Source: Squalus acanthias (Eukaryota). From it: a stretch of 64,000 nt of DNA. A program made the position numbers and the translations under genes. Of the stretch, positions 21,071 to 62,944 are shown in pieces. The notes under the pieces were generated by a model. That model saw only the letters and a list, made by a program, of their open reading frames with translations, searched no databases and was not told where the DNA came from. Position 1 is the stretch's first letter, and each line of letters begins with the position of its first letter. Where the stretch lies: assembly GCA_030390025.1 (NCBI GenBank), contig CM059432.1, forward strand, positions 2,046,001-2,110,000, in the 5' to 3' direction.

Positions 21071-21107
21071 AGTTAACGTTTCAGGTCGAAGACCTTTTGT
21101 CAGAACT
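21071..21107 (-). ncRNA. Hammerhead-like motif with mutated core (CTGACAA, G8>A)
   Basis: Reverse-complement copy of 21927-21963 with one change at a conserved core position. Confidence 0.55.
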
Positions 21108-21926
21108 GGAAAAAAGCAGGAAATGGAATAGATTTTAAAGCAAGTTTAGAGGCTGGGAAAAGGGGGAGGGGATGAAAGAACAAAAGGGAAGGTCAGTGAT
21201 AGGATAGAAAGCAGGAGAGATTAAGAGACATTGAGAGACATTAAGAGATATTCAAGGCTAGAGGAGGTGGTAATGGGACAGGTTAAGGAACAAAGGATGG
21301 CTCTAGATGAAGTGTGAATTGTGCTGGCAGAATGAAGGACAGCTGCCATGTGGGAGGGAAGAAAAAAAGGGCCAAACAAAAAGTGTGGATAAAAAAAATA
21401 TATATGTGATAGGGGCCGAGGTTATGATCTGAAATTGTTGAACTCTATGTTGAGTCCAGAGGGCTGTAGAGTGCCTAATCAAAAGATGAGGTGCTGTTCC
21501 TCGAGCTTACGCTGAGCTTCCGTGGAACAATGCAAGAGGCCGAGGACGGTGAGGTCTGAGTGGGAGTGAAGCGGTGAATTAAAGTGACAGGCGACCGGAA
21601 GCTCGGGTCCCCCTTACGGACTGAACGGATATATATATATTTTTTTATCCACACTTTTTGTTTGTGTCTGTGCTTCTCTCCCACATGGCAGCTGTCCTTC
21701 ACTCTGCCAGCGCAATTCACACTTCATCGAGAGCCATCCTTTGTTCCTTAACCTGTCACATTACCACCTCCTCTTGCCTTGAATATCTCTTAATGTCTCT
21801 CAATGTCTCTTAATCTCTCCTGCTTTCTATCCTATCACTGACCTTCCCTTTTGTTCTTTCATCCCCTCCCCCTTTTCCCAGCCCCTAAACTTGCTTTAAA
21901 ATCTATTCCATTTCCTGCTTTTTTCC

Positions 21927-21963
21927 AGTTCTGACGAAAGGTCTTCGACCTGAAACGTTAACT
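21927..21963 (+). ncRNA. Minimal hammerhead-ribozyme-like motif (PLE family B)
   Basis: AGTT-CTGACGA-A-AGGTC ttc GACCT-GAA-ACGT-T-AACT: stem I, core, stem II, GAAA and a palindromic stem III. Confidence 0.7.
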
Positions 21964-22673
21964 CTGTTTCTCTCTCTCCACGGATGCTGCCTGGCCTGCT
22001 GAGTTTTTCCAGCATTTTCTGTTGTTATTTCGGATTTCCAGCATCCGCAGTATTTTGCTATCGTGTTGCTGTAGAACAATCTCCATTGGACGCCTGAAGT
22101 TTCGCGACGGACGGACTGCCTGCAAAACTCTGGGCAGCTCCTGAAAGTCGCAAAAGCTCGTCAAAGCTGAGAAATCCTGTACTCGAAGGGTTAAAATGTT
22201 TAGGTAAAGAATATCAAAGTCACAAATTTAATTTTACTGCTTCATCTAAGCGCTTCACTATTGTCAAAGAACCTGCAATTCACTGGCAGTTTAATTGCTT
22301 AAGGCAGACATTTCATTTATCTTTATAATTGGCACATTCAGCAGATTATAATGTAGTTAATGGAAATTAAATTACATAATTTACGAATCTTAAAACTGGC
22401 TTAGCATGTGCTAAAGGTAAAGCGCATATCTAAGACAACCTTTAACGACTACCTCTCACTGAAGTGATTGGCACATTATACAGGATGAATTACTTTTTTT
22501 TATAATATCTTAATTACGTTTTTCACTCGTTAATGAGCAAGGATAATCTAATCATTCAAAGATACGTGATTGTCCGATGTTATATGTTGCCTTTTTGTCA
22601 GGCTCCGGAGAGGTAATTGGCTTGCCGAAATGCCACTTCTCTGCCTGCATTCTCTCGTTCACAGGAAAAAGAG

Positions 22674-23138
22674 CAAGACTTGTATTTCTATAGCGCCTTT
22701 CACGACCACTGGACGGCCCAAAGCGCTTTACAGCCAATGAAGCACTTTTTGAAGTGCAGTCACTGTTGTAATGTGGGAAACGCGGCAGCCAATTTGCACA
22801 CAGCAAGCTCCCACAAATAGCAACGTGATAATGACCAGATCATCTGTTTTTAGTGATGTTGATTGAGGGATAAATATTGAACCAGGACACCGGGGATAAC
22901 TTCCCTGCTCTTCTTCGAAATAGTGCCATGGGATCTTTTACATCCACCTGAGAGGGCAGACGGGGCCTCGGTTTAACGTCTCATCCGAAAGACGGCACCT
23001 CCGACAGTGCAGCACTCCCTCAGTACTGCACTGGGAGTGTCAGCCTAGATTTTTGTGCTCAAGTCTCTGGAGTGGGACTCGAACCCACAACCTTCTGACT
23101 GAGAGGCGAGAGAGAGTGCGACCCACTGAGCCATGGCT
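22674..23138 (-). mobile_element. Full-length tRNA-derived SINE (Deu-domain, SacSINE1-like) with L2-type tail
   Basis: On the minus strand: A-box tggctcagtgg, B-box ggttcgagtcc, a body shared with many copies in the window, and the tail aaggcgctatagaaatacaagtc. The family name is from recall. Confidence 0.85.
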
Positions 23139-23305
23139 GTGAAGAGCCCCATGACCTCAGTAAAATGCATGCGGCAGTTCGGGCACGTTCGAAAGAGAGG
23201 ACTTCAATGGAATGGAAGATCGGGCAGGGTGTATTACGGGTGGCCAATCCACTACCGCCGGTTTAACGTCCTGTGGTGCAAATTAAAATCTACCCAGGAG
23301 AGTCA

Positions 23306-23772
23306 GCCGTGGCTCAGTGAGCAGCACCCTCACCACCGAGTCAGAAGGTTGTGGGTTCAAGTCCCACTCCAGAGACCTGAGCACAAAATCCAGGCCGACA
23401 CTCCCAGTGCAGTACTGAGGGAGTGCCGCACTGTCGGAGGTGCCGTCTTTCGGACGAGACGTTAAACCGAGGCCCCGTCTGCTCTCTCAGGCAGATGTAA
23501 AACATCCCATGGCCACTATTTTGAAGAAGAGCAGGGGAGTTCTCCAAAGTGTCCGGACCAATATTTATCCCTCTGAATATTAATCTCACTAAAAACAGAT
23601 TATCTGGTCATTATCACCTTGCTGTTAGTGGGATCTTGCTGTGCGCAAATTGGCTGCCGTGTTTCCCACATTACAACAGTGACTCCACTTCAAAAAGTGC
23701 TTCATTGGCTGTAAAGCGCTTTGGGACGTCCTGAGGTTGTGAATGGCGCTACAGAAATGCAAGACTTTCTTT
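23306..23772 (+). mobile_element. Full-length Deu-type SINE
   Basis: gccgtggctcagtg...ggttcaagtcc...ggcgctacagaaatgcaagac. Confidence 0.85.
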
Positions 23773-26700
23773 TTGAAAATTAAGCTATTAAGGCAATGGA
23801 AAGCCTCATCCAAGACTGGTGTGGTTCTCACAAAATGGCCAAAGCACATAGGTACTTAGCAACTGGGGGAGGCCATTCAGCCCCGCGAGCCTGTTCCGCC
23901 ATTCAGTTAGATCATGGCTGATCTGTAACTTATCCATCTACCTGCCTCGATAACCTGGCCTAACAAAAATCTATCAATCTCCGTTTTGAAATTTTGAATT
24001 GACTCCCAGCCTCAAAAGCTTTTTGTGGAAGAGAGTTCCCGATTTCTGTGAAGAAATGCTTCCTGACATCACCCCAGAACGGCCTAGCTCTAATTTTACC
24101 GAAGGAAGGAGAAATTTGCCTTAGAGGGAGTGCAACGAAGGTTCACCAGACTGATTCCTGGGATGGGGGGTTGTCCTATGAGGAGAGATTGAGTAGACTA
24201 GGCCTATATTCTCTAGAATTTAGAAGAATGAGAGGTGATCTCATTGAAATGTATAAAATTCTTAAGGGTTTGACAGGGTAGATGCAGGGAGGATGTTTCC
24301 CCTGGCTGGGGAGTCTAGAACCAGGGGTCACAGTCTCAGAATAAGGGGTCGGCCATTTAGGACTGAGATGAGGAGAAATTTCTTCACTCAGAGGGTGGTG
24401 AATCTTTGGAATTCTCTACCCCAGAGGGCTGTGGAGGCTCAGTCGTTGAGTATATTCAAGACAGAGATCGATAGATTTTTGGACACTAAGGGAATCAAGG
24501 GATATGGGGATAGTGGGGGAGTGGAGGCAGAAGATCAGCCATGATCTTATTGAATGCAGAGCGAATGGCCGACTCCTGCTCCTATTTCTTATGTTCTTAT
24601 ATTCTTAAGGTTCTGCCCCCTTGTTCTGGACTCCCTCACCAGAGGAAATAGTTTCTCTCTATCTACCCTATCAACTCCTTTAATCATCTTAAACACCTCA
24701 ATTAGATCGCCCGTCAATCTTCTATATTGCAGAAGTGGTCAAAGGATCGTGATAAGAAGCAGTGAAGCCTGGCTGATTTCTACTCCGCTAGGCCGCCAGT
24801 ACCGAGCCCAATTGAAGAAACTCTACTTTCCAGGTGCCGAGCTCGGCGATCTCAGCAGAGGTGAGGGACCGATCGCGGGACGTGTATTGCATTTAACCCG
24901 CTGAGCAAATGGCAGAGTGAATAATCAAGCTCTGTTAAAGGGAAGGCAACAAATGCACAGTAATCCTTGTGTACGGCATTGTGTCCCAGGACAGTTCGCC
25001 AACTCTTTGATATAAATCGCATGTTGTAGGATGCTATATGGCACGTAGGTTGTGTCTCAGATGATGTATTGCGTTCTACTGTAAAACACTAAAACGGGCC
25101 TCGGTGCTGGCTAGTGGATGAGTTCCACTGGGAATTCCTGCATTTATGTCATAGAGTCATAGAGTTATACAGCACAGAAAGAGGCCCTTCGGCCCATCGT
25201 GTCCGCGCCGGCCATCAAGCCCTGTCTATTCTAATCCCATTTTCCAGCACTTGGTCCGTAGCCTTGTATGCTATGGCGTTTCAAGTGCTCATCTAAATGC
25301 TTCTTGAATGTTGTGAGGGTTCCTGCCTCTACCACCCTTTAAGGCAGTGAGTTCCAGATTCCAACCACCCTCTGGGTGAAAAAGTTTTTCCTCAAATCCC
25401 CTCTAAACCTCCTGCCCCTTACCTTGAAACTGTGCCCCCTGGTTATTGACCCCTCTACTAAGGGGAAAGGTTCCTTTCTATCTACCCTATCTATGCCCCT
25501 CATAATTTTGTACACTAATGTCATCATATTAAAGGCACCAGGATAAAATGTACAAGTCCCAGGCACTCGGGAGGAACCTTTAGCAGAGGATCGTACAGCA
25601 CAAGAGGAGGCCATTCGGCTCATCGTGCCTGTGCTGGCTCTTTGAAAGAGCTCTCCAATTAGTCCCACTCCCCCCTGCTCTTTCCCCCATAGCCCTGCAA
25701 ATTTCTCCCCTTCAAGTATTTATCCAATTCCCCTATTCAAAGTTACTATTGAATCTGCCTCCACCACCCCTTTCAGACAGCGCATTCCAGATCACAGCAA
25801 CTCACTGCGTAAAAATAAATACTTGAAGAGGACGAAATTTGCAGGGCTGTGGGGAAAGAGCAGGGAGTGGGACTAATTGGAGAGCTCTTTCAGGGAGCCG
25901 GCACAGGCACGATGGGCCAAGTGGCCTCTTTCTGTGCTGTGTGATTCTATGAATTCCTTCACCAGTCTGACTGAATGGTCCCTAGAAATGGGCCGACTGC
26001 TTCTGGTCTTTAAAGTGCAAATGTATGAGAAAGGAAGTTTCAATAAATGATTGAGGGTCACAGGCATGAGCTAGTTTTCCAGTCCTTCCGTATCTTTCCA
26101 GTTCTGGTCACCACACTTTAGGAAGGATGTGAAGGCCCTTGAGAGGGTGCAGAGGAGATTTACCAGAATGGTTCCGGGGATGGGGGATCTTAGCTACAAG
26201 GACAGGTTGGAGAAGCTGGATTTATTTTCATTCGAGCAAAGGAGGTTGAGGGGTGATTTGATAGAGGTGTACAAGATTATGACGGGTTTGGATAGGCTAG
26301 ACGGGGAAAGGCTGTTCCCAGTAGTTGATGGTACAAGGCCTAGGGGACACAGATTTAAGGTTTTGGGCAAGAGATACAGGGGGGATGTGAGGAAAAACGT
26401 TTTTACGCAGCGAGTGGTGAGGTCCTGGAACTTGCTGCCGACGGAAGTGGTGGAAGCGGAGACACTCAATGTTTTCAAGGGGAGACTGGATAGGCACTTG
26501 AGGGAAATAAACTTGCAGGGCTACAGGGATAGAGCGGGAGGAATGGGACTGACTGGATTGCTCTACAGAGAGCCGGCACGGACTCGATGGGCCGAATGGC
26601 CTCCTTCTGTACCGTTATGACTCTGACTCTATAAAAAGGGTATAAATATGTTAGTTCTATGAGTGATGAGCACAGTGAGAGACGGTAATCAGATAATGAA

Positions 26701-27335
26701 ACTGCAGAAAACTGACAAGTTGCTTTTCCCGCAGGGTAAACATATATAAGTGATGCCCATCAGACAAGAACATGTCCATTTTTATTTAAGAATGATGACA
26801 AATAATATGTTTTAGCCCAGTGTTCCTCATTGGTAATGCCAGCCACATATCTGAGGAACATCTTCAACCTTTGGCAGAAAGTGGGGGATTGAATTAACTT
26901 CAGTTCAGAATCCTCCATCAAAAGCAACAGATGTACATCTGTAAAGATTTTAAAATTCTAATCCTTGTTTTCCAATTCCTCGCCCCCTCCCTATCTCTGT
27001 AATCTCCTCCAGCCCCACAACCCTCCGAGATCTCTGCCCTCCTCCAATTCTGGCCTCTTGAGCATCCCCGATTTCCATCGCTCAACCATTGGCGGCAGTG
27101 CCTTCAGCTGCCTGGGCCCCAAGCTCTGGAATTCCCTCCCTAAACCTCTCCGCCTCTCTACCTCTCTCTCCTCTTTAAGACGCTCCTTAAAACCTACCTC
27201 TTTGACCAAGCTTTTGGTCACCTGCCCTAATATCACCTTATGTGGCTCGGTTTCAAATTGTGTTTGACAATCGCTCCTGTGAAGCGCCCTGGGACGATTT
27301 ACTACGTTAAAGCTGCTGTATGTTGTACACAATAT

Positions 27336-28228: not shown

Positions 28229-28534
28229 AAAAATATCACAGACAAACAATCAACAAAGTGGCATCAAATCAGCAAAATGTGGTGTGAACAATCGGGACTT
28301 TGCAAATCACCGAACATCAGCAAGTTACTAACCAGCCTTGTTTCCGAGAGCGCTGGCACAGAAACACACTCAAGATGTGTTTTGACAATTGGCACCATCT
28401 TGTTTATGGTTACCAGGGAGCTGGCTAAACGAGGCACCTGCTTCTCACCGAAGGCAAGGTTCTGCAACTTCCATTTCTACAGCGCCTTTCACAACCTCAG
28501 CGCTTTACAGCCAATGAAGTACTTTTTGAAGTGT

Positions 28535-28736
28535 GATGTGGAGATGCCGGTGTTGGACTGGGGTGGACAAAAGTGAGAAGTCGCACAACACCAGGTTATA
28601 GTCCAACAGTTTTATTTGAAATCACAAGCTTTCGGAGCGACTGTTCCTTCTTCACCTGACGAAGGAGCAGCCGCTCCGAAAGCTTGTGATTTCAAATAAA
28701 ACTGTTGGACTATAACCTGGTGTTGTGCGACTTCTC
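28535..28736 (+). mobile_element. Penelope-like terminal-repeat hairpin insertion (family A) inside a SINE
   Basis: Near-perfect palindrome 28569-28742 with a 34-nt one-sided tail at 28535-28568. TSD actttttgaagtgt at 28521-28534 and 28737-28750. The arm sequence matches the 3' end of the GIY-YIG element at 42318-43179. Confidence 0.85.
28652..28689 (+). ncRNA. Minimal hammerhead-ribozyme-like motif (PLE family A)
   Basis: TCAC-CTGACGA-A-GGAGC agcc GCTCC-GAA-AGCT-T-GTGA. Confidence 0.7.
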
Positions 28737-31700
28737 ACTTTTTGAAGTGTAGTCACTGTTGTAATGTAGGAAACGCGGCCGCCAATTTGCGCTCAGCAAG
28801 CTCCCACAAACAGCAATGTGATAATGACCAGATAATCTGTTTTAGTGATGTTGATTGAGGGATAAATATTGGCCCCAGGACACCGGGGAGAACTCCCCTG
28901 CTCTTCTTCGAAATAGTGCCGTGGGATCTTTTACATCCACCTGAGAGAGCAGACGGGGCCTCGGTTTAATGTCTCATCCGAAAGACAGCACCGCTGATGG
29001 AGTGTCAGCCTAGATTATGTGCTCAAGCCTCTGGAGTGGGCTTTGGACCCACGACCTTCAGATTCAGATGCGAGAGTGCTGCCCACTCAGCCACGGCCGA
29101 CAGCTTTTCCCCTCTTTTTCTCCTGTCTTTACACCATGGCCCGAGCTGGATTCCTCGGCCTCAGCCATTCTGCAGTTGGAGATGTGCGAGCATGGTTAAT
29201 GATGCATGTTGAGGGGAGATAGCTACTCAAACTGCAATTAGATAAAACAAAGCTTTTGGCAGGGAAAGAGTGGGGGAGAAAGGTCCTACGCTATGGGACC
29301 CAGTCAGTAATGAGCAGTTTCATTACAAGTACTAACATAAAGCCAGAAATGTGTTATTTATATACCGCACCACACTTTAGGAAGGACATCAAGGCCTTGG
29401 AGCGGGTGCAGAGGAGATTTTCTAGAATGGTTCCAGGGATGAGGGACTTCAGTTATGTGGAGAGACTGGAGAAGCTGGGGTTGTTCTCCTTCGAGCAGAG
29501 AGGGTTAAGAGGAGATTTAAATTATGAAGGGTTTTGATAGAGCAGATGGGGAGACACTGTTTCCTCTGGCAGGAGGGTCGGTAACCAGAGGACACAGATT
29601 TAAAATATTTGGCATAAAAATCAGGGGGGAGATGAGGTGAAATGTTTTAGCTCAATGAGTTGTTATGATCTGGAAAGGGCGGTGGAAGCAGATTCAATAG
29701 TAACTTTCAAAAGGAGAATTGGATAAATACTTGAAAAGGAAAAATTTGCAGGGCTGTGGGGGAAAGGGCAGGAGGGAGTGGGACTAATTGGAGAGCTCTT
29801 TCAAAGAGCCGGCACAGGCACGATGGGCCGAATGGCCTCCTTCTGCGCTGCAAGATTCTATACTATTTGAGAAAGTAATGATTGGAGAGACGTTTGTGTC
29901 TCCGAGTGACATAATCTGAACCGCAACAGAGCTCTGCACAACCATCTGTTTGTTGATCTGTGTCCCTGTGATCGAAAGTGGTTGTCACATTCCCGGGCAG
30001 TCCGTATCGGGAGGGATTGAACAGGCTGGGGCTCTGCTCTTTAGAAAAGAAAAGACTTAGAGGTGACCTGATAGAGGTCTTTCAAATTCTGAATGGGTTG
30101 GACAGGGGTAGATGTGGGGAGAATGTTTCCACTTGTGGGAGAATCCAAAACTAGGGGCCATCAATACAAAATAGTCACTAGTAAATCCAAAACATAGAAT
30201 TACATAGGATATACGGCACAGAAACAGGCCATTCGGCCCAACCAGTCCATGCCGGCGTTTATGCTCCACTCGAGCCTCCTCCCATCTTTCCTCATCTAAC
30301 TCTATCAGCATAATCCTCTATTCCCTTCTCCCTCATATGCTTGTCCAGCCTCCCCTTAAATGCATCTATACGAATAGGGAAATAAGGAGAAATTTCTTTA
30401 CTCAGAGGTGGTTAGAATATGGAACTGGTTACCACAGGGAGTGGTTGAAGCGAATAGCATCGATGCTTTCAAACGGAAGCTAGACGGTACATGAGAGAAA
30501 AGGCAATAGAAAGATATGCTGAAAGGCTGAGATGAGGGAGATGGACTGGGAGGAGACTTGTGTACAGCATTAACGCCAGCACAGACTAGTTGGGCCAAAT
30601 GGTCTGTTTCTGTGCTGTATAATCTACGTAATTCGACGCATTGCAGTCATTACTGCATCTCATCAGATCATCTAGAGGTAGAGTGGATAGGAAGGACATA
30701 TTTCCCTTAGCAGAGAGGTCAATAACCAGGAGGCAGAGATTTAAAGTAATTGGGAGAAGGATTAGAGGGGAGTTGAGGAGAAATATTTTCACCCAGAGGG
30801 TGGTGGGGGTCTGGAACTCGCTGCCTGAAAGGGTGGTAGAGGCAGAAACCCTCATCACATTTAAAAAGTACTTGGATGTGCACTTGAAGTGCCGTAACCT
30901 ACAGGGCTACGGACCAAGAGCTGGAAAGTGGGATTAGGCTGGGTAGCTCTTTGTCGGCCGGCACAGACACGATGGGCCAAATGGCCTCCTTCTGTGGCGT
31001 AAATTTCCATGATTCTATGATTCATCTTAATCCAAACTTACTTCTTTATTTAAAGAGGCACTATCTCTGGCAAACTAATCTGGAAATCTGTTGCAGCAAG
31101 TTCACATGTAACTCTACAATCTGCGGCCAGATTGGATCATTAGGCCGCCTATTCCACCTGCCTCAATCAGTACATCGACTTAGAATAACAAGAGAATGAA
31201 ACAAATTGCGAAAGTGTAAGCTCAGTGGGCACGGAATTGTTAGAGGAACTGAATCTGACTGAAAGGCCATCTGGGTCCTTCAACCGACGTAACCCGCGAG
31301 TGTAAATGAATTAAAAGTAATACTTTCTTGTTATCTACATCCTGTAGAATCTATCTCACAAGATCATGTTCAACCCTTCACGGGAAATACGAATATGGTA
31401 AGATTCCTGCACAATTCGGAAACACTGCTGTAACCAGATCAGATTTGGCAGATAATCCAACTAATGAAAGAAAAAAAACAGGAGAAGCTGGGATTGTTCT
31501 CCTTGGAGCATAGAAGGAAAAGATTCATAGAATCACAGAAATTTACAGCACAGAAGGAGGCCATTCGGCCCATCGTGTCAGTGCCGGCCGACAAAGAGCT
31601 CTCCCGCCTAATCCCACTTTCCAGCTCTTGGTCCGTAGTCCTGCAGGTTACGGCACTTCAAGTGCATATCCAAGTACTTTTTAAATGCGATGAGGGTTTC

Positions 31701-40880: not shown

Positions 40881-42317
40881 TGGTTAGGCCTCAGCTGGAG
40901 TATTGTGGCCAATTCTGGGCACAGTCAGGGCCTTGGAGAGGGTGCAGAATTACTAGATTTACTAGAATGGTAGCAGGGATGAAAGACTTCAGTTACATGG
41001 AGAGATGGGAGAAGCTGCGATTGTTCTACTTAGAGCGGAGAAGGTTATGTGAAGATTTGATAGAGGTGTTTTGAATTCTCTGCCCCAGAGGGCTGTGGAT
41101 GCTCAGTCGTTGAGTATATTCAAGGCTGAGATCGATAGATTTTTGGACTCTCGGGGGAATCAAGGGATACGGGGATCGAGCAGGAAAGTGGAGTTGAGGT
41201 TGAAGATCAGCCATGATCTTATTGAATGGCGGAGCAGGCTCGAGGGGCCGAAAGGCCGACTCCTGCTCCTATTTCTTATGTTCTTATGTGTTCAAAATCA
41301 TGAAGGTTTTGATAGTGTAGATGGGGAGAAACAGTTTCCACTGGCAGCAGGGTCGGTAACCAGAGGACACAGATTGAAGGCAATTGGGAAAAGCACGCGA
41401 GGATTTTTTTTATACGCAGCGAGTTGTTGTGACTGAAAGGATTGTAGAAGCAGATTCAATAGTAACTTTCAAAAGGAATCAGATTAATACTTGAAGGGGA
41501 GAAATTTGCAGGGCTCTGGGGAAAGAGCACGGGGGGAGTGGGACTAATTGGAGAGCTCTTTCAAAGAGCCAGCACAGGCACGATGGGCTGAACGGCCTCC
41601 TTCTGTGCTGTGCGTTTTTGTGATTCTAACCGGAACATCTTCAAGGAAATGATTTTGAAAATGCAGGATAAATACAAACCTGCAAACTCAGACAAATATG
41701 TGTGACTCTACATGGAGTAGTAAACAAATCAGAGAATGATGCAGCGCAGGAGGAGGGCATTCGGCCCATCGTGCCTGTGCCGGCTCTTTGAAAGAGCTCT
41801 CCAATTAGTCCCACTCCCCCCTGCTCTTTCCTTGTAGCCCTGCCATATTTTTCGTTTTCAAGTATTTATCCAATTCCCCTTTTTAAAAGTTATTATTGAA
41901 TCTGCTTCCACCGCCCTTTCAGGCAGCGCGTTCCAGATCACAACAACTCACTGCGTATAAAAAAATCTCATCTCCACTCTGGTTCTTTTGCCAATGACAT
42001 TAAAACTGTGTCCTCTGGTTACCGACCCTCCTGCCAGTGGAAACAATTTCTCCTTCTCTGCACTATCAAAACCTTCATAGTTTTTAACGCCTCTATCAAA
42101 TCTTCCCTTAACCTTCTCTGCTCGAAGGAGAACAATCTCAGCTTCTCCGGTCTCTCCACATAACTGAATTCCCTCATCCCTGGAACCATTCCAGTAAATC
42201 TCCTCTGCAGCCTCTCCAAGACCTTGACATCCTTCCTAAAGTGTGGTGTCCAGAATTGGGGCCTAACCAGTTTAACATATCTTCCTTGCATTTGTACTCT
42301 ATGCCTCTATTAATAAA

Positions 42318-43179
42318 CGACACCACACAACCCTGCCATGGCAAACTCTGCAAGACATGCCAGATCATCAACACAGATACCACCATCACACGTGAGGACA
42401 CTACCCACCAGGTACATGGTACATACTCATGTGACTCGGCCAACGTTGTCTACCTCATACGTTGCAGGAAAGAATGCACCGCGGCATGGTACATCGGCGA
42501 GACCATGCAGACACTGAGACAACGTATGAACGAGCACCGCGCAACAATCGCCAGGCAGGATTGTTACCTCCCAGTCGGGGAACACTTCAGCAGTCAAGGA
42601 CATTCAGCCTCGGATCTGCGGGTAAGCGTTCTCCAAGGCAACCTTAGAAACACACGACAACGCAAAATCATCGAGCAGAAACTGATAGCCAAGTTCTGCA
42701 CTCATGAAGACGGTCTCAATCGGGATCTTGGGTTTATGTCACGATACATGACGTGATCCGGACTCGAGTCGTCGTTAGCTTGTTCACAGATGTGATTCCC
42801 AGTAAAAAAGTAAAAATTTTCCCAGTAAAAAAGTAAATTTTTTTTTTAAAGCTTTTCGTTTTACATACAGACGGCAGCTTTTGACACGTTAGAACCCCTG
42901 CGACTTCACCTCATTGTCTCAGTTGTATCTTGCTATGTCTTTTGATGTGGTACCTTCCTGGCTGACTTAATTAACTTTATCACACCTCGGCAGATAGTCA
43001 GGATGATTTAATTTATTGGTCTGCAATTGTAAAGTACACATGCTTTTTTTTCCATCTATATATGCTCTGACGATTCTGTATCCAATTTACTTCACCTGAG
43101 GAAGGAGCGATAGTTCCGAAAGCTTGTGATTTCAAATAAAACTGTTCGACTATAACCTGGTGTTGTGCGACCTCTCAAT
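42318..43179 (+). mobile_element. 5'-truncated Penelope-like element (family A) with GIY-YIG endonuclease domain and 3' pLTR
   Basis: ORF 42241..42756 contains PCHGKLCKTC...VVYLIRC...WYIGET...LRQRMNEH...VGEHF...E...GLN, a Cys-rich linker plus GIY-YIG that is Neptune-like by inference. 12-bp TSD tctattaataaa at 42306-42317 and 43180-43191, within a CR1 fragment. Confidence 0.9.
43092..43129 (+). ncRNA. Minimal hammerhead-ribozyme-like motif (PLE family A)
   Basis: TCAC-CTGAGGA-A-GGAGC gata GTTCC-GAA-AGCT-T-GTGA. It varies only at the free position 7, the loop, and one G-U wobble. Confidence 0.68.
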
Positions 43180-43354
43180 TCTATTAATAAAGCCCAGGAT
43201 CCCGTATGTATTTTTAACAGTCTTCTCAACTTGTCCCGCCACCATCAAAGATTTGAGCGAATCAAAAGTGAAGAGAAAATATGATCAGTACAAATCCTGC
43301 AGAGTGAAACGTGAAAGGCTTCACTTAGTGTCTCATCCGAAAGACGGCATCACA

Positions 43355-44321
43355 GACAGTGCGGCGCTCCCTCAGTACTGCCCCTCCGACAGTGCGGCGC
43401 TCCCTCGGTACTGCCCCTCCGACAGTGCGGCGCTCCCTCAGTACTGCCCCTATGACAGTGCAGCGCTCCCTCAGTACTGCCCCTCCCACAGTGCGGCGCT
43501 CCCTCAGTACTGCCCCTCCGACAGTGCAGCGCTCCCTCAGTACTGCCCCTCTGACAGTGCAGCACTCCCTCAGTACTGCCCCTCCGACAGTGCGGTGCTC
43601 CCTCAGTACTGCCCCTCTGACAGTGCAGCACTCCCTCAGTACTGCCCCTCCGACAGTGCGGCGCTCCCTCAGTACTGCCCCTCTGACAGTGCAGCACTCC
43701 CTCAGTACTGCCCCTCCGACAGTGCGGTGCTCCCTCAGTACTGCCCCTCCGACAGTGCGGCGCTCCCTCAGTACTGCCCCTCCGACAGTGCGGCGCTCCC
43801 TCAGTACTGCCCCTCCGACAGTGCTGCGCTCCCTCAGTACTGCCCCTCCGACAGTGCGGCGCTCCCTCAGCACTGCCCCCCCTCAGTACTGCCCCTCCGA
43901 CAGTGCGGCGCTCCCTCAGTACTGCCCCTCCGACAGTGCAGCACTCCCTCAGTACTGCCCCTCCGACAGTGCCGCGCTCCCTCAGTACTGCCCCTCCGAC
44001 AGTGCCGCGCTCCCTCAGTACTGCCCCTCCGACAGTGCGGCGCTCCCTCAGTACTGCCCCTCCGACAGCGCAGCGCTCCCTCAGTACTGCCCCTCCGACA
44101 GTGCGGCGCTCCCTCAGTGCTGCCCCTCCGACAGTGCGGCGCTCCCTCAGTACCGCCCCTCCGACAGTGCAGCGCTCCCCCAGTACTGCCCCTCCGACAG
44201 TGCGGCACTCCCACAGTACTGCCCCTCCGACAGTGCCGCGCTCCCTCAGTACTGCCCCTCCGACAGTGCGGCGCTCCCTCAGTACTGCCCCTCCGACAGT
44301 GCCGCGCTCCCTCAGCACTGC
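43355..44321. repeat. 33-bp minisatellite (~29 units) expanded within a SINE
   Basis: Unit ccgacagtgcggcgctccctcagtactgcccct. The flanks at 43325-43354 and 44322-44425 are the host SINE. Confidence 0.95.
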
Positions 44322-46890
44322 ACTGGGAGTGTTAGCCTAGATTTTGTACTCAAGTCTCTGGAGTGGGATTTGAACCCACAACCTTCTGACTCAGAAACAA
44401 GAGTGCTGCCCACTGAGCCACGGTCGACACTTCAACAGATTAACTAAAACAGATGAACTGGTCATTTTTTTCATTGCTGTTTGTAGGAACTGACTGTGTG
44501 CAAATTGGCTGGCATATTTGTCTATAATACAGTGACTACACTTGAGATATCAAATGGACGGGGAGCCTTTTGGGACACCCTTAAGATGTGGAAAGAATTA
44601 TTTAAAGGCAAGTTCTTTCTTTCTTCTTCTTTACATCTACCTTTTCTTAACGAGAATTAATACATCGCATTTACAGCACAGAAACAGGCCATTCGGCCCA
44701 TCTGGTCCGTGCCGGTGTTTCTGCTCCACATGAGCCTCCTCCCACCCCTCTTCATCTCACCCCGTCACCATATCCTTCTGTTCCTTTCTCCCGCATGTGT
44801 TTGTCCAGCTTCCCCTTAAATGCATCTATGCTATTCGCCTCAACCACTCCCTGTGGGAGCGAGTTCCACATTCTCACCACTCTCTGGGTAAAGAAGTTTC
44901 TCCTGAATTCCCTACTGGATTTATTAGTGACCAGCTTACATTTATGTTAATGGAAAATAGCAGGCAGCTTTTCCATTCTTGATCACTTCCCATTATCTCG
45001 CCACACCAGTATGCCAGATATATTTGTGGACCAGATCTGACACACAGTCTGAAACTGGTCACCACTCTGTAAGCAAGCCTGCTGTCACCTCATCATTTTG
45101 TTAAAATTGGCATATCTTGTCTTCTGAACCTTGGCGGTGTGTCTTGCCTTGTGGTCCTTAAACCCTTCACAACTGTTTCTCCATTTAATTTTTGCATGTG
45201 CGAGGCTAGGAAACAGGACATTTGACTACAGGGAGCATCAGGGAAGAATCCACTCTCTTGTCCTCACCCGATAATCACATGCTAACGCTTCCCGCAGCCA
45301 CCACGGGATAGTGAGCAGAGGTGGGAATGCTGGCTGATATCCCGTGCAGTCAAAGGCATTCTACTCAGCTGATCGACAGGGGATAGAATCTGTCTGCTCC
45401 GTAATCTCAGTAAATCTCACCATGGGGAGGGACGATTTGCCTTCCATTTGTCCATTTGTAAAGGGCCAGCGGTTGGGGTTGCCATTCTATTGTGCACCTA
45501 CTCAGTAGAAAGAATGGGTTGCTCGTCATTTACTTATGTCTGCCTTTGGTCAGGTGGGTTAAGGGTTTAATCATAGAATCGTACAGCGCAGGAGGAGGCC
45601 ATTCGGCCCATCGTGCCTGTGCCGGCTCTTTGAAAGAGCTCTCCAATTAGTCCCGCTCCCCCCAGCTCTTTCCCCACAGTCCTGCACATTCCTCCTTTTC
45701 AAGTATTTATCCAATTCCCCTTTTGAAAGTGACTATTGAATCTGCTTCCACCGCCCTTTCAGGCAGCGCATTCCAGATCACAACAACTCGCTGCGTAAAA
45801 ATATTTCTCCTCCTCTCCCCTCTGGTTCTTTTGCCAATTACCTTAAATCTGTGTCCTCTGGTTACCGACCCTCCTGCCACTGGAAACAGTTTCTCCTTAT
45901 CTACTCTATCAAATCCCCTTCATGATTCTGAACACCTCTATTAAATCTCCCCTTGACCTTCTCTGCTCTAAGGAGAACAATCTCAGCTTCTCTCAGCCTC
46001 TCCACACAACTGAAGTCCCTCATCCCTGGAACCATTCCAGTAAATCTCCTCTGCCCCCTCTCCAAGGCCTTGACCTCCTTCCTGAAGTGCGGTGCCCAGA
46101 ATTGGACACAATACTCCAGCTGAAGCCCAACCAGTGACTTACAAAGGTTTAGCATTTATAACTTGCCATTTTCCTTGTGTCAGTGCTTGGTCGGGGAAGG
46201 AATCCCTGACCGCTGCCAATAAGTTTGCTGTGGTCTCGCACGTTGCAGCCACAACAGACCATAAATTACCATAATTATGTAAATATATTTTTGCCTCAGT
46301 AGTGAAGCGTGCTTTTGAATTGAATTTGGTTTGAAATGTCGTCTCATCATTCTCTGAAGACACGCAGGGTTTCATATTTTCTACTCGCTGAAAGTGGTGC
46401 ATAGATTTCCAATGGGTCATGGACGTGGGACAGACAAGAACACCCATAGACGAGTGATTAGAATGACCCACTGTCGAAAGGCTGGGGTTGTTTTCCTTAG
46501 AGCAGAGAAGGCTGAGGGGGGGACATGATTGAGGTGTACAAAATTATGAGGGGCATAGATAGCGTAGATAGAAAGGAACTTTTCCCCTTAGTAGAGGGGT
46601 CAATAACCAGGGGGCATCGTTTCAAGGTAAGGGGCAGGAGGTTTAAAGGGGATTTGAGGAAAAACTTTTTCACCCAGAGGGTGGTTGGAATCTGGAACTC
46701 ACTGCCTGAAAGGGTGGGAGAGGCAGGAACCCTCACAACATTCAAGAAGCATTTAGATGAGCACTCGAAACGCCATAGCATACAAGGCTACGGACCAAGT
46801 GCTGGAAAATGGGATTAGAATAGACAGGGCTTGATGGCCGGCGCGGACACGATGGGCCGAAGGGCCTCTTTCTGTGCTGTATAACGCTAT

Positions 46891-47630: not shown

Positions 47631-47641
47631 TATGACTCTAT

Positions 47642-48749: not shown

Positions 48750-49160
48750 GCCGCAGCTCAGCGGGTAGCCCCCTCCCCTCTGAATCTAGAAGGTTGTGGG
48801 TTCAAGTTCTAGGCTGACACTCCAGTGCAGCACTGAGGGAGTGCTGCACTGTCGGAGGTGCCGTCTTTCATATGAGATATTAAACCGAGGCTCCGGCTAC
48901 TCTCTCAGGTAGACGTAAAAGACACCATTTCGAAGAAGAGCAGGGGAGTTATCCCCGGTGTCCTGGGGCCAATATTTATCCCTCAATCAACATAACAAAA
49001 AAAACAGATTATCTGGTCATTATCACATTGCTGTTTGTGGGAGCTTGCTGCCACCTTTCCTAACAGTGACTACACTTCAAAAGTACTTCATTGGCTGTAA
49101 AGCGCATTGGGATGTCCGGTGTTCGTGAAAGGTGCTGTAGAAATGCAAGTCTTTCTTTCT
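48750..49160 (+). mobile_element. Deu-type SINE
   Basis: Matches the other copies, with small deletions. Confidence 0.8.
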
Positions 49161-50920
49161 TATTATTTTTCCAAGTTGAAATAGTCTCTTCTGTTTCTCC
49201 CCGCCTTTGTGCGAACTGTTGTCAACGAGCCATGCATCTGGCAATGTTGCTCTTGGAGCTCGCCCCCTCCCTATCTCTGTAATCTCCTCCAGCCCTACAA
49301 CCCCCCCGAGATCTCCGCGCTCCTCCAATTCTGGCCTCTTCCGCACCCCCGATTATAAATCGCTCCACCATTGGCGGCCGTGCCTTCAGCTGCCTGGGCC
49401 CTAAGCTCTGGAATTCCCTCCCTAAACCTCTCCGCCTCTCTCTCCTCCTTTAAGACGCTCCTTAAAACCTCCCTCTTTGACCAAGCTTTTGGTCACCTGC
49501 CCTAATATCTTATGTGGTTCGGTGTCAAATTTTGTCTGATAATCGCTCCTGTGAAGCGCCCTGAGACGTTTTACTACGTTAAAGGCGCTGTATAAATACA
49601 AGTTGTTGTTGTTGGGAGATGTGCAGTCGCAGCCTGGGAATAAGTTTCTCTCCCATTCATTTTCTGTAATAAAACACCTAAGACCTCTGTTCAATGCCTA
49701 TCCACAGCAACAGAACTGAGTTCAGCAACTCAGCATTATGCAAGATAATGGGCATTCTAACCTGTCATGACGCAGACATCCATCTGAACAGGGATGTGAT
49801 GGATTGGAGATTTGTCTCATTTCAAATTACACAAGACAAGACAGTTTTTAAATATTTTGTCGGAGGAATGGCAAGGGTTTGACAGGTTTGAAATGCCTAT
49901 TTCTGTGTCTAGGTGTCAGGCTCATGTGTAGACGCCACTTCAGGACAAGGATGACCCAGCTCTGCCGGGCAGATTGTAAAATAGGCATCACAGATACCGA
50001 TAAGACCACCACCACCACCAATCTACATTTATATAGCGCCTTTAACGTAGTAAAACGTCCCAAGGTGCTTCACAGGAGCGATTATCAAACATAATTTGAC
50101 ACCGAGCCACATAAGGAGATATTAGGCAGGTGACCAAAAGCTTGGTCAAAGAGGTAGGTTTTAAGGAGCATCTTAAAGGAGGAGAGAGAGGCGGAGAGGT
50201 TTAGGGAGTGAATTCCAGAGCTTGGGGCCCAGGCAGCTGAAGGCACGGTCGCCAATGGTGGAGCGATTATAATCAAGAGGGCAGAATTAGAGGAGCGCAG
50301 AGATCTCGGAGGGTTGTTTGGCTGGAGGACATTACAGAGATAGGGAGGGGTGAGGATGAGAATTTTAAAATCGAGGCGTTGCCGGACCGGGAGCCAATGT
50401 AGGTCAGCGAGCACAGGAGGGGTGATGGGTGAACGGGACTTGGTGCGAGTTAGGACATGGGGCAGCGGGAGTTCTGGATGAGCTCCAGAGCTGAAAGTAC
50501 TCTCAAACCCGATTATCAGAGTCACCTTGCTTCACAAGTAGGAACATTATCAGCTTGGTTTTACTCTAGTTTTGATTGACAGCTTTATTTACAAGACCCA
50601 AGCCTGGACACCGCTGTCAGCCCAACCTCAGCATCTCCATGAAACTGGACACTAGTCATAGAACGATACAGCACAGAGGGAGGCCATTCGGCCCATCGTG
50701 CCTGTGCCGGCTCTTTGAAAGAGCTCTCCCATTAGTCCCATTCCCACCTGCCCTTTCCCCATAGCCCTGCAAATTTTTAAGTATTTATCCAATTCCCCTT
50801 TTGAAAGTTATTATTGAATCTGCTTCCACCGCCCTTTCAGGCAGCACATTCCAGATCACAACAACTCGCTGTGTAAAAAAAAATTCTCCTCAGCTCCCCC
50901 CTCTGGTTCTTTGATGAAGA

Positions 50921-51941
50921 GAAGGGGTTCACTGGGAGGAGAAAGGGTTCACTGGGAGGAGAAGGGGTTCACTGGATGTAGAAGGGGTTCACTGGATGGA
51001 GAAGGCGTTCGCTGGGATGAGAAGGGGTTCACTGGGAGGAGAAGGGGTTCACTGGGATGAGAAGGGGTTCACTGGGATGAGAAGGGGTTCACTGGATGGA
51101 GAAGGCGTTCACTGGGATGAGAAGGGGTTAACTGGATGGAGAAGGGGTTCACTGGGATGAGAAGGGGTTCACTGGATGGAGAATGGGTTCAGTGGATGGA
51201 GAAGGTGTTCACTGGGATGAGAAGGGGTTCACTGGGAGGAGAAGGGGTTCACTGGATGGAGAAGGGGTTCACTGGATGGAGAAGGGATTCACTGGATGGA
51301 GAAGGGGTTCAGTGGATGGAGAAGGTGTTCACTGGGATGAGAAGGGGTTCACTGGATGGAGAAGGGGTTCACTGGATGGAGAAGGGGTTCACTGGATGGA
51401 GAAGGCGTTTACTGGGATGAGAAGGGGTTCACTGGGATGAGAAGGGGTTCACTGGGAGGAGAAGGAGTTCACTGGATGGAGAAGGGGTTCACTGGATGGA
51501 GAAGGCGTTTACTGGGATGAGAAGGGGTTCACTGGATGGAGAAGACGTTCACTGGGATGAGAAGGGGTTCACTGGATGGAGAAGGGGTTCACTGGGATGA
51601 GAAGGGGTTCACTGGATGGAGAAGGGGTTCACTGGATGGAGAAGGGGTTCACTGGGATGAGAAGGGGTTCATTGGATGGAGAAGGGGTTCACTGGGATGA
51701 GAAGGGGTTCACTGGATGGAGAAGGGGTTCACTGGGATGAGAAGGGGTTCACTGGGATGAGAAGGGGTTCACTGGGATGAGAAGGGGTTCACTGGGATGG
51801 AGAAGGGGTTCACTGGGATGAGAAGGGGTTCACTGGATGGAGAAGGGGTTCACTGGATGGAGAAGGGGTTCACTGGGATGAGAAGGGGTTCACTGGGATG
51901 AGAAAGGGTTCACTGGATGGAAAAGGGGTTCACTGGGATGA
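50921..51941. repeat. 20-bp G-rich minisatellite (~51 units)
   Basis: Interspersed unit variants gaaggggttcactggatgga and gaaggggttcactgggatga. Confidence 0.95.
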
Positions 51942-51966
51942 ACACAGGACTACACAGAGACACACT

Positions 51967-52234
51967 GGCCCCGATTTTAACTCCAGGCGGATTCCCCACT
52001 CAGACCTGAGTTAAAATTACAGTCGGGCCTCAATGATGTCATCAGGCCACAACATGTGTATGTAAAGAAGGATCCCGTTGGCTCCGGGCGCGTGTCCTTG
52101 CCGCCTGCTCAGGAGAGCGGGTTAAAATGGCAGATGTCGCGATCATGGCGCCTTTCGGACAGGTAAGAGCGAGGGCGATTTTAACTGCCCGCCCGCCAAG
52201 TTTCTGCTGAGCGAGGAGGGTTAAAATCGCCCCC
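51967..52234. mobile_element. Small MITE with Harbinger-like TIRs
   Basis: Imperfect TIRs ggccccgattttaac / gttaaaatcgccccc, with internal gttaaaat repeats. Confidence 0.5.
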
Positions 52235-52947
52235 AATTATTGAACGAGTAATAGAAGAAGCAATGAGAAACAGGCAAGACGCAGTGAAACATTTTTTCAG
52301 TGGCGCACCAGTCGGAGAGCAGTCAGGGATGGAGTGAAAACACCAAAGGATGTAAAACAGGCACGAAACTGAGGATGATCTCCAAATAGTAAATATTCTG
52401 TGTGATTCCTTCTCTGCCAAGTATTCACAAAGGAAGACATGAGAAATGTGCCCTCCCCAAACAGAAATAATCCGTGCAAAATCAATGATTTTGATCGAAA
52501 TGAGATGGCAGCCCAAGACAGGCTACAAGAGCTCAAAATAATTAAGTCCCCAGGAATGGCTGGTATATAAGTGTAGAGAGAGACGAGACTGAGGCATTAA
52601 CTAACACCACAAAGACACTAGCGGGGTCCCAGGATATTGGAAATAGCTAAAGTGGTGCCCATATTCAAAAAGGAGGACAACACAGACACAGGCAATTGCA
52701 GGCTTATTAGTTCTCCCTTCCATGTCAAATAATGGAATCAATTATCAGGAGGAAAGTTGAAGATTATCGGTACGACTATAACGTTAATAAACAGCAGTTG
52801 GTAAGGGTTCCAGGAGGGGAAGGTCCTACTGGAGCAGCTCCTGGACTTCTACGAGGAAATGACGAACCCAAGTGATCCTCCAGGTTTGACATCTCCAATA
52901 CTTTCCACTCCCTACCTTCCCCAAGCTCGACACAAACTCCAACTTGT

Positions 52948-53250
52948 CCCAAACCCGCGACCTCTTCTACCTAGAAGGACAAGGGCAGCAGGCGCATGAG
53001 AACACCACCACCTCCAAGTTCCCCTCCAGGTCACACACACCATCCTGACTTGGAAATATATCGGCCGTTCCTTCATCGTCGCTGGGTCAAAATCCTGGAA
53101 CTCTCTACCTAACAGCACTGTGGGAGCACCTTCACCACACGGACTGCAGCGGTTCAAGAAGGCGGCTCACCACCACCTTCTCAAGGGCAATTAGGGATGG
53201 GCAATAAATGCTGGCCTTGCCAGCGACACCCACATCCCAGGAACGAATTA
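52948..53250 (+). mobile_element. Second-family LINE 3' end
   Basis: Matches ~10930-11229. Confidence 0.8.
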
Positions 53251-53721
53251 AAAAAAAACTCTGCTGCCCACAACTTACTCAGTACTAAGTCCCTCTCACC
53301 TAACACCCATTCCTCACTGAGCTCGACTGCCTGCCCATCTTCCATTGTACGGATTTCAAAATCTTCATCGCTAAATCTCATTGGGGAATGAATGTTCTTA
53401 CTTACACATTTTTCAGTAATTCCTCAAGATAGTAGGGTTCAAAGGCATTTACTGGCTTTCATGAGAATTAAGCATACAATTATAACTATTATTACCAAAT
53501 ATAATTAATAATGACAAATGGACTGCTTGGGTGTACAGAGCGCAATTTCGAAATTTGCAGATGACACGAAACTTGGAAGTATAGTGAACAGTGAGGAGGA
53601 TAGTGATAGACTTCAAGAGGACATAGACAGGCTGGTGGAATGGGTGGACACGTGGCAGATGGAATTTGATGCAGAAAAGTGTGAAGTGATACATTTTGGT
53701 AGGAAAAACGAGGAGAGGCAA

Positions 53722-54493
53722 TGGCTGGAATTTTCCCGTTAAAAAAAACGGGTGGGTTTGGAGCGTGGGGGCAGTTAAAGTGTTAAAAATGTGACTCCCG
53801 ACTCGATCCCGACTCCAGCCCGCCCACTTCCGGTTTTAACGGGGGCGGGGACAGGGGGGGTGGGCAGCCAACCCGCTGCCAGGGGGCGCTACCTCAATTT
53901 AAATATTGTAATGAGGTTGGAAGCCTCTATTTTCCCCTCCATTTTGTGTTGATCTGCCTGTGGACCGCTTTCACACAATTCGTGAAACATAGGCGGGGAC
54001 CGCTGCACCCAGGAGGTAAGTGGCTTTATACCCACCTCCTGGATCCAGGGTCCCTGCCGCACCCACACCCCCCGCAATCGGAGACCCCCACCACGAGGCC
54101 TCCGACCACCTTCCTAGGCCTCTCCCCGCCCCACCAACGATGATGAGGAGGCCGGGCATGATCCCCCCCCCCGCGATCCCCTGCCGATGCTACAACCGCC
54201 CCCCCCCCCCCGCCCCCAACGATGATGAGGAGGCCGGGCATGATCCTCCCCCCCCCCCCCCCTCCGCCGATCCTCTCGCCCCCCCCCCCCCGCCCCCCAA
54301 CGATTCCTCCCCCGGACTGACCCCTCTCAAGCTGGCTGGCTGCGGGCAGGAAACCCAGGCCTCACATTCAAATTAGGCCCAGCAGGTAAAGTCGGCGGGG
54401 CCCGTGGGAAACCCGGCCTCTCGGGCTTCCCGCCCGCCTCAGAAACCACCCCCCCTCCCCCACCCCCAGCCCCCCTGAACAAAATTCCAGCCA
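53722..54493. mobile_element. Harbinger-like MITE interrupting a CR1 RT fragment
   Basis: 13-bp TIRs tggctggaatttt / aaaattccagcca. CR1 sequence resumes on both sides. The interior has C-rich short repeats. Confidence 0.72.
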
Positions 54494-54722
54494 CACACAC
54501 TAAATGGTACCATTTTAAAGGGGGTGCAAGAAGAGAGAGACCTGGGGGTGTTTGTGCACAAATCTCTGAAGGTGGCAGGACAGGTTAACAAAGCAGTTAA
54601 TAAAGCACACGGGATCCTGGGCTTTATAAAGAGATGATGCGGAGATGCCGGTGTTCGACTGGGGTGGACAAATGTGAGAAGTCGCACAACACCAGGTTAT
54701 AGTCCAACAGCTTTATTTGAAA

Positions 54723-54759
54723 TCACAAGCTTTCAGAGCGCTGCTCCTTCGTCAGGTGA
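54723..54759 (-). ncRNA. Minimal hammerhead-ribozyme-like motif (PLE family A), sense to the ZNF521 pre-mRNA
   Basis: Reverse complement reads TCAC-CTGACGA-A-GGAGC agc GCTCT-GAA-AGCT-T-GTGA. Confidence 0.66.
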
Positions 54760-54955
54760 AGTGAAGAGATGCATATAGTCACAGCATATATAGTCAGAGA
54801 ACACAGCCAGATGATTACAGTTAATCTTTCCAACTGCCCTTTATCACACCTCGGCAGAGAGACAATCACGGCAATCACAGGTTAGAAAGATTAACTGTAA
54901 TCATCTGGCAGTGATCTCTGACTATATATGCTGTGACTATATGCATCTCTTCACT

Positions 54956-54992
54956 TCACCTGACGAAGGAGCAGTGCTCTGAAAGCTTGTGA
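54956..54992 (+). ncRNA. Minimal hammerhead-ribozyme-like motif (PLE family A)
   Basis: TCAC-CTGACGA-A-GGAGC agt GCTCT-GAA-AGCT-T-GTGA. Confidence 0.66.
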
Positions 54993-62865: not shown

Positions 62866-62944
62866 CTGCAAAACATCAATCACTCAATGTCACTACATGC
62901 TCACTTCCTCTCGCTGCCAGAGATACATCAACATCAAAAAATAC

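Follow-up and report, generated by a model that had tools for sequence, protein, structure and literature searches.

Minimal hammerhead ribozymes are a known feature of the pseudo-LTRs (pLTRs) of metazoan Penelope-like elements (PLEs; Cervera & De la Pena 2014, PMC4209133). In that work, they are type I motifs with CUGANGA followed by one unpaired nucleotide, GAAA, a palindrome at positions 15.2/16.2 without a loop 3, and H at position 17; they have a stem I of 3-4 bp and a pyrimidine-rich 5' flank, lie in each terminal repeat, and persist mostly in solo truncated copies. The G10.1-C11.1 pair is typical, not universal: some published rows have A-U. Endonuclease-bearing PLEs of the Neptune and Nematis groups have a single ORF with a reverse transcriptase plus a GIY-YIG domain at the C terminus, a CX2-5CxxC linker common to both groups, and partial tandems, inverted 5'-truncated arms, a 30-40-bp tail at one end and short target duplications (Craig et al. 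2021, PMC8557442). In the green anole Poseidon element PAc, the hammerhead lies close to the ORF start, and two 3' ends correspond to two internal starts of reverse transcription (Frangieh et al. 2024, PMC11167929). Animal non-LTR retrozymes, which are PLE-related, carry type I hammerheads with dimer-enhanced cleavage in short non-coding tandem repeats with demonstrated circles (Cervera & de la Pena 2020, PMC7229834; Li et al. 2026 preprint). For related RNAs, dimer cleavage, protein assistance and circularisation by RtcB have been published. What PLE hammerheads do was left open by Craig 2021 (PMC8557442), and how pLTRs are regenerated by Schostak 2008.

The motifs of Squalus acanthias share the features listed for the 2014 hammerheads, with a variable 10.1-11.1 pair, and their parent elements those listed for Neptune and Nematis. 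Judged by sequence, the motif class is the known PLE minimal hammerhead, in a host lineage that lies outside the 2014 table. Further differences from the published set are the number of intact motifs (about 95,000 by extrapolation, versus 4,000-9,000 in coelacanth and Xenopus), a stem II closed mostly by A-U in one of the two families, for which Latimeria 2 is a precedent, and a U4C lineage in the other. We consider it quite probable that two related, recently active PLEs, families A and B, carry these motifs in their terminal repeats as minimal type I hammerheads, which likely cut the element's RNA only when two copies pair through their AGCU or ACGU palindrome. As in PAc, the hammerhead lies near the ORF start and two tails would mark two internal starts of reverse transcription; unlike in PAc, where the ORF begins within the ribozyme, the ATG lies 91 nt past the predicted cut in family A and the long tail ends at it. 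The likeness to retrozymes is in the hammerhead type, the PLE relationship and dimer-enhanced cleavage, predicted here from sequence. The copies are not short non-coding head-to-tail repeats, however, but truncated or inverted pieces of autonomous ORF-bearing units known from DNA.

Motifs in the window and their parent elements

The window, the whole 64-kb stretch of DNA analysed, contains five matches to a strict motif descriptor, compared with none in each of 20 Markov-simulated windows. The six positions given in the initial annotation are correct, and five of the six motifs fit the minimal type I core CUGANGA ... GAAA-N-N-U-H; the sixth, at 21071, reads CTGACAA (G8A) and not CTGACGA as had been quoted. 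Neither are they six independent intact copies: they belong to four insertions, with 21071/21927 and 54723/54956 forming the arms of inverted pairs. The extra A and the palindrome are present as described, whereas the supposed 2-nt loop III consists of positions 15.2/16.2, which form no loop, the defining trait of the minimal form.

The family B insertion is an inverted, head-to-head copy (21006..22064) with a short tail on the left arm, a long tail on the right arm and an outer 14-bp target duplication. One arm holds the G8A hammerhead, predicted to be inactive (21071..21107, minus strand), and a remnant of the GIY-YIG endonuclease C terminus, with one internal stop relative to intact family B frames (approximately 21419..21620, minus strand). 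The other holds a TATA-like box, a putative promoter element that precedes stem I by about 31 nt (21895..21901, plus strand), and a hammerhead with an intact core, A10.1-U11.1 and U17 (21927..21963, plus strand; predicted cut after 21959). The remaining insertions are of family A. In a short fold-back copy (28534..28742; 13-bp target duplication, the long tail on the left and the short one on the right), a seventh motif, truncated so that C3-N7 and the stem I 5' strand are missing (28622..28650, minus strand), meets the other arm at a CTTC microhomology, next to an intact hammerhead (28652..28689, plus strand; predicted cut after 28685). A very young 5'-truncated element (42316..43180, plus strand; 11-bp target duplication), 99.7% identical to full-length copies, retains the open C-terminal 145 codons of the ORF with the CX5CxxC linker and GIY-YIG domain (42316..42753, plus strand), the 3' UTR, a TATATA box (43057..43062, plus strand) with transcription probably starting near 43089, about 30 nt downstream, an intact hammerhead (43092..43129, plus strand; predicted cut after 43125) and a short tail. 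The last, an inverted insertion (54634..55045; long tail left, short tail right), has hammerheads at 54723..54759 (minus strand; predicted cut after 54727) and 54956..54992 (plus strand; predicted cut after 54988), both with a C11.1-to-U change that leaves a G.U closing pair. All motif-bearing copies in the window are truncated insertions, short remnant end-pieces of two related, very abundant mobile elements. The six motifs are likely inert, since no two lie on the same strand of one element, four sit in the arms of long hairpins and G8A affects one.

The parent ORFs of 892 aa (A) and 876 aa (B, 5' end incomplete) both contain RVT_1 (E 1e-8 and 2e-5), DKG, YIDD and CX5CxxC, as well as a C-terminal GIY-YIG domain at E values weaker than the Pfam curated cut-off (4e-4 and 3e-4). 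Although the families had been called unrelated, and their DNA is barely alignable, the ORFs share 32.2% identity across 888 aa (E 3e-125). The placement of the hammerheads within PLE terminal repeats stands: full ORF-bearing units carry a motif at each end. Unit length is about 3.14 kb in family A (3,139 bp) and 3,198 bp in family B (locus L131), and the family A motif follows the 3' UTR and precedes the ORF start. Partial tandems, inverted arms and a tail at one end are all present, as in Neptune-type PLEs, and multi-unit arrays occur. Of 30 adjacent inverted pairs, 29 combine a long tail with a short one; the remaining pair extends into the ORF. Biased loci had suggested that two different RNAs contribute to each inverted insertion, which is mostly unsupported: in an unbiased set, even rare haplotypes are common to both arms, and the length of loop II differs between arms in only three pairs. 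On these features, A and B are probably two related, recently active Neptune-type PLEs, Neptune being preferred over Nematis because of the linker motif and its published occurrence in vertebrates.

Abundance and conservation of the hammerheads

In an evenly spaced genome sample of 898,800 bases, the strict descriptor found 23 motifs (13 of family A, 10 of family B), whereas five simulations gave 0, 0, 1, 0 and 0 and a reversed control gave 1; the figure of about 95,000 intact motifs is extrapolated from this sample. Genome-wide, the exact 33-nt family B motif occurs 5,874 times (control 0), and for family A there are 93,351 exact matches to the tail, as well as 411 pLTR-ORF junctions.

Conservation was profiled in 80 family A copies, chosen by their tail alone, and 55 family B copies. 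In family A, C3, G5, A6, A9, G12, A13, A14, A15.1 and U16.1 are invariant, G8 is kept in 79 and U4 in 75 copies, while N7 takes all four letters, loop II varies from 3 to 9 nt, and position 17 is U in 72 and C in 8; G is never found there in the 135 copies of both families. The unpaired A between 9 and 10.1 is present in all copies (80/80 and 55/55). The 15.2/16.2 palindrome, which has no helix III, is AGCU in 80/80 family A copies and ACGU in 49/55 family B copies, the remainder showing CpG-type changes. Family A has G10.1-C11.1 in 80/80; family B has A10.1 in 43, G10.1 in 12 and U11.1 in 51 of 55. The covariation claimed for the stems is borne out both within family A, where one stem I pair is C-G in 56, U-A in 22 and U.G in 2 copies and pair 10.5/11.5 is C-G in 73 and U-A in 4, and between the families, which differ by two-sided changes at all four stem I pairs, three of five stem II pairs and the 15.2/16.2 pair. 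Nor does the core mutate as freely as its flanks: mean identity among 11 lineage representatives is 0.98 in the core, 0.89 in the stems and 0.68 in the upstream 100 nt. In family A, the near-invariant core, set against drift at N7, loop II and the upstream UTR, together with the covarying stem pairs, suggests that catalysis is likely under selection. Two observations count against our best explanation: G8 is kept in only 50 of 55 family B copies, with faster decay at CpG core sites, and the natural U4C lineage of family A is mobile and forms partial tandems. Dimer cleavage of minimal hammerheads was reportedly studied by Lunse et al., whose work may already cover U4C or other variants. Overall, the observation in the initial annotation is partly confirmed and its interpretation partly supported.

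Insertion junctions and a possible life cycle

The 5' ends of copies cluster at the 5' edge of the ribozyme, about 30 nt past the conserved TATA-like box, which is found at C3-37..-45 in 20/20 (A) and C3-34..-37 in 24/24 (B) distinct upstream sequences. Stops within +2..-46 occur in 52 of 112 ordinary copies but in only 1 of 26 full-length arms (p=2.5e-5). The junction hazard of family A is highest at -32..-41 (23 of 89 at risk, compared with 5 of 56 at -53..-80), and in family B, 20 of 77 stop at -23..-41 and 0 of 54 at -53..-80. Eight genuine family A junctions lie at C3-7. The preceding base is G in six of them (p=0.011), although in each case it could have been templated by the partner arm. 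Of 14 short copies whose target duplication is resolved, only 1 shows a lone untemplated G, the signature of a cap, which counts against our best explanation; a cap-derived G is not established. Family B stem I, with its pyrimidines and CAG, might conceivably act as a 3' splice site as in D. virilis, but AG is often retained at the junctions and family A lacks this signal. The 5'-edge pile-up, nearly absent from full-length arms, fits circular or tandem templates without proving them.

At the cut itself, about 1% of copies stop. Genome-wide, 212 junctions fall exactly there, compared with 149 at +4, 109 at -2 and 55 at +8, which also counts against our best explanation. This is a 2-4-fold local excess (by hand count, 33 of the 87 genuine listed matches fall at +1 and about 17 at +4) that is confounded by microhomology: of 20 at-cut junctions inspected, about six are explained by GTGA microhomology and two are small insertions in intact copies. 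Four full-length family A arms end just 49-59 nt upstream of the cut, near the presumed start, a further point against.

How could these ends arise? Transcription probably starts about 30 nt past the TATA-like box, 0-3 nt before stem I, and reverse transcription would begin at two sites, about 55 and 92 nt beyond the cut. Uncut linear RNA would then yield the abundant 90-130-nt insertions that end at the ribozyme 5' edge. Among possible roles of cleavage, the one we rate highest, though only tentatively, has both ribozymes of a full transcript dimerise and excise a unit-length RNA, which a host ligase would circularise to give more-than-unit copies with the promoter rebuilt. That the junctions record the entire PLE life cycle in vivo, from a TATA/initiator start at the first hammerhead nucleotides, through uncut capped RNA primed near its 5' end to give short hairpin insertions, to dimer cleavage, circularisation and rolling-circle copying that restores a promoter-bearing pLTR, is a possibility we rate as rather doubtful in full. 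By nearest-neighbour energies the active dimer is not favoured, and for the intact family B copy a non-hammerhead fold is 3 kcal/mol better; these energies are uninformative on dimer cleavage. The repeated portions of partial tandems differ at 44 of 22,335 bases, too few to tell circles from strand transfer.

Alternative readings and implications

A serious competitor, though we would not bet on it, is an active ribozyme with a regulatory role, which removes a capped mRNA leader of about 35-40 nt or destroys transcripts and so limits expression, while a separate process, either read-through of tandem arrays or strand transfer between the two terminal repeats, produces the more-than-unit copies. 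The inferred start leaves the cut just 33-42 nt from the 5' end, cut RNA serves as template for at most about 1% of copies, and multi-unit arrays exist. Two published findings that count against our best explanation point the same way: Naiad elements form partial tandems despite having no hammerheads (Craig et al. 2021, PMC8557442), and anole hammerhead mutants insert normally in vitro, where no cleavage is needed (Frangieh et al. 2024, PMC11167929). In the anole, moreover, no RNA-seq reads end at the cut, another point against our best explanation. If read-through began in the common one-unit-plus-promoter copies, however, many full-length copies should end at the start site, and 0 of 26 arms end at C3-7, an objection that strand transfer would escape. 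Less probable still, and on balance unlikely, is a motif kept as a folded RNA element for protein binding or packaging, or as a hitchhiker, with cleavage of little importance in vivo and the junction peak caused by polymerase stalling and microhomology in self-complementary sequence. Low published in vitro rates, the parasitism raised by Craig 2021 (PMC8557442), the spread of the U4C and A10.1-U11.1 lineages and the many junctions at microhomologies inside the motif agree with it; yet conservation falls on the catalytic positions, N7 varies freely and G never occurs at position 17, full-length arms traverse the same structure almost without stops, and the peak follows the TATA-like box in both families.

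It is very improbable that the window copies act on a host transcript. Two minus-strand motifs do lie downstream of a large C2H2 exon of a minus-strand zinc-finger gene, but one has G8A and the other C11.1 to U, both are hairpin arms with no same-strand partner within their element, and the families have tens of thousands of copies. We give equally little credit to the idea that the hammerhead variant proposed in the initial annotation (extra A, 2-nt loop III, U17) is undescribed. The suggested comparison with Rfam returned no hammerhead family among 33 matches at E<=10, with no match to the canonical type I model, which has helix III and loop-loop contacts, and the 40 species of the 2014 alignment include no cartilaginous fish. 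That alignment nevertheless refutes the idea: its consensus is already CUGANGAH...GAAAN-palindrome-NU-H, and by hand count 24 of its 56 rows have U17, while 8 of 56, including a turtle AGCU-U, join U17 with the extra A and the 2-nt palindrome (Cervera & De la Pena 2014, PMC4209133).

The motif itself is thus ordinary, and the genome is useful as a test bed: the young, abundant family, its natural core variants and the sharp contrast between short and full-length starts make the start site, cleavage and circle formation directly testable. If the junctions do record the PLE life cycle, the ribozyme would gain a job, and the rebuilding of pLTRs would be explained.

Minimal hammerheads in two related Penelope-like families

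All six hammerhead motifs of the initial annotation lie where it had placed them in the window, at 28652, 43092, 54723 and 54956 (family A) and at 21927 and 21071 (family B). They are distributed over four insertions, three with clear target duplications (11-14 bp) and one with an imperfect duplication. Five of the six match a strict minimal-hammerhead descriptor, while the copy at 21071 carries G8A; position 11.1 is U at 54723 and 54956, and a seventh, shortened motif lies at 28622-28650. The six window copies are likely inert. The descriptor gave 5 matches in the window versus none in 20 simulated windows, and 23 in 90 evenly spaced 10-kb stretches of the genome (898,800 bases; 13 family A, 10 family B, no others) versus 0-1 in each of six controls. 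At that density the 3.71-Gb genome would contain about 95,000 intact copies of the motif. Exact tail matches, downstream of the cut, number 93,351 for family A and 21,783 for one family B variant.

The parent elements are recognizable. A frame at 42316-42753, with at least 150 near-identical genomic copies, encodes the terminal part of a GIY-YIG domain. Complete family A copies comprise a 3,139-bp unit with an 892-aa ORF and one hammerhead per end, the predicted cut lying 91 nt upstream of the ATG; family B has a separate ORF (locus L104) and a 3,198-bp unit (locus L131). Since their proteins share 32% identity across 888 aa, along with DKG, YIDD and CX5CxxC motifs, the families, initially called unrelated, are related Penelope-like elements, probably of the Neptune (or Nematis) type. 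An array of about 4.3 near-identical family A units of 3,138 bp occupies G000:C2:211212000-211227000 (L377-L378). Sequencing runs labelled as several different coded organisms (X1-X8, X19-X24) hold family A sequence at a high word share; family A is therefore young or widely distributed among related species.

CR1-type LINE debris makes up most of the window; within such LINEs, several Penelope-like insertions target one same AT-rich word (window; L361, L363, L063). By its LINE content the host is probably a cartilaginous fish, a group whose genomes are LINE-rich in this way. A large C2H2 zinc-finger exon of ~1,140 codons (59453-62875, minus strand) is presumably ZNF423/ZNF521-like, and the hammerheads may lie in introns of this gene. 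Minisatellites occupy 43219-44390 (33-bp, yielding long spurious ORFs) and 50819-52000 (20-bp). A long near-perfect hairpin of inverted LINE-end fragments (63167-63387) matches plant miRNA models below their thresholds in an Rfam scan, which returned no hammerhead model match for the window motifs.

Conservation and precedent of the ribozyme

Copies were selected by the tail sequence 3' of the cut, leaving the ribozyme out and therefore free to vary. The family A sample (n=115) combined the first 100 matches on contig C1 with 15 from the even sample; family B contributed 107, and copies are not independent events. Among 80 motif-spanning A copies, nine core positions never vary; G8 is kept in 79 and U4 in 75. 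N7 is any of four letters, loop II spans 3-9 nt, and only U or C occurs at position 17. One pair each in stems I and II switches between C-G and U-A; the outer stem I pair is disrupted in 15 copies. Across 11 lineage representatives, core identity is 98% versus 68% and 58% in two upstream 100-nt blocks, so the core does not mutate as freely as its flanks, whereas equal mutability had been named beforehand as speaking against a ribozyme; the tail, which partly served as anchor, reaches 91%. Family B behaves similarly with more CpG decay (55 copies; 12 duplicated or fold-back rows removed). This pattern is the one predicted under selection for catalysis in master lineages.

U17 is the slowest of the residues allowed at its position, and G8 is catalytic. 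The latter role is stated in Frangieh 2024 (PMC11167929) and in Weinberg 2019 or de la Pena 2017. A mobile family A lineage carries U4C (CCGACGA core; G000:C1:906683, 1072574/1072741 and 2004975; L337, L345), includes full-length partial tandems and, in some copies, has stem II compensated by a U-A pair; in a viroid, U4C is a known change, weakened yet viable (Perreault 2011). Within a segmentally duplicated block (G000:C1:6988670-7138422) identical family B insertions recur, and one of the recurring copies has a CTGACAC core.

The extra A, the 15.2-16.2 palindrome (first read as a two-nucleotide loop III) and U17, at first thought possibly undescribed, are all present in Cervera & De la Pena 2014 (PMC4209133). 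That paper defines the minimal motif without helix III, includes this palindrome and an additional nucleotide separating positions 9 and 10.1, and reports low dimer activity. By hand count, 24 of the 56 rows in its alignment have U17 and 8 combine CUGANGA, A9.1, a 2-nt palindrome and U17; the A10.1-U11.1 pair appears there too. Li et al. 2026 sampled a single cartilaginous fish and found hammerhead retrozymes in it. The motif is real and of a known kind, and the host example is new.

Where copies begin

In both families, 5' junctions are most frequent at the 5' edge of the ribozyme, with eight genuine family A junctions at C3-7 and a family B mode at C3-3/-4 (99 of 107 copies, 7 duplicates and an edge copy having been removed; among the family B fold-backs, four are placed too far upstream owing to the fold-back reference). 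This pattern was not found in the literature searched, which covered neither subscription papers nor bioRxiv supplements. Junctions exactly at the cut make up ~1% of copies, a weak enrichment once microhomology is allowed for. A TATA-like box, by a pattern set post hoc without shuffle control, lies ~30 nt before the peak positions (C3-7 and C3-3/-4) in 44/44 distinct upstream sequences, its offset differing between lineages. At some 5' junctions (G000:C1:235594/235725, 547713) the 5' side of stem I recurs as short CTTCAC or CTGTAC units, resembling polymerase stutter at a template end; at 21910-21929 and in family B loci, a pyrimidine tract plus CAG adjoins stem I, like the 3' splice site of D. 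virilis Penelope.

One-ended tails and inverted arms in Penelope-like elements are described by Craig 2021 (PMC8557442) and Arkhipova 2013. Here, 29 of 30 adjacent inverted pairs combine one long and one short tail (4 non-adjacent pairs excluded). Of 27 long arms containing the ORF start, one ends at +31, one within the ribozyme, and 25 extend 49 to >3,000 nt beyond the cut; their repeated parts differ by 0.2%. Stops at the ribozyme's 5' edge region occur in 1/26 such arms versus 52/112 ordinary copies (p=2.5e-5, paired arms not being independent).

What the ribozyme may do

Motif location, core conservation and junction pattern are established here; slow cleavage of minimal motifs, as dimers, comes from published work. 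Short insertions would arise by priming near the 5' end of uncut transcripts, whereas ORF-bearing copies would require a template in which the 3' UTR precedes the site of priming. Read-through or strand transfer could provide it, the ribozyme being merely regulatory. Naiads without hammerheads form tandems too (Craig 2021), and Schostak 2008 viewed tandems as a promoter source, with the mechanism not known there; we therefore hold this reading to be as probable as a circle made by double cleavage. In the anole element, reverse transcription begins at two internal sites and requires the ORF's first 172 nt, cleavage occurs only with protein, and insertion proceeds without cleavage (Frangieh 2024). 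Cut retrozyme RNAs are circularised by RtcB (Cervera 2020, PMC7229834), and a circle by double cleavage was put forward in 2014 (Cervera & De la Pena). We propose this role for the ribozyme only tentatively, and consider it less likely than not: double cleavage would yield a circle that serves as the template needed for ORF-bearing copies, and this would account for the absence of full-length copies ending at the start site.
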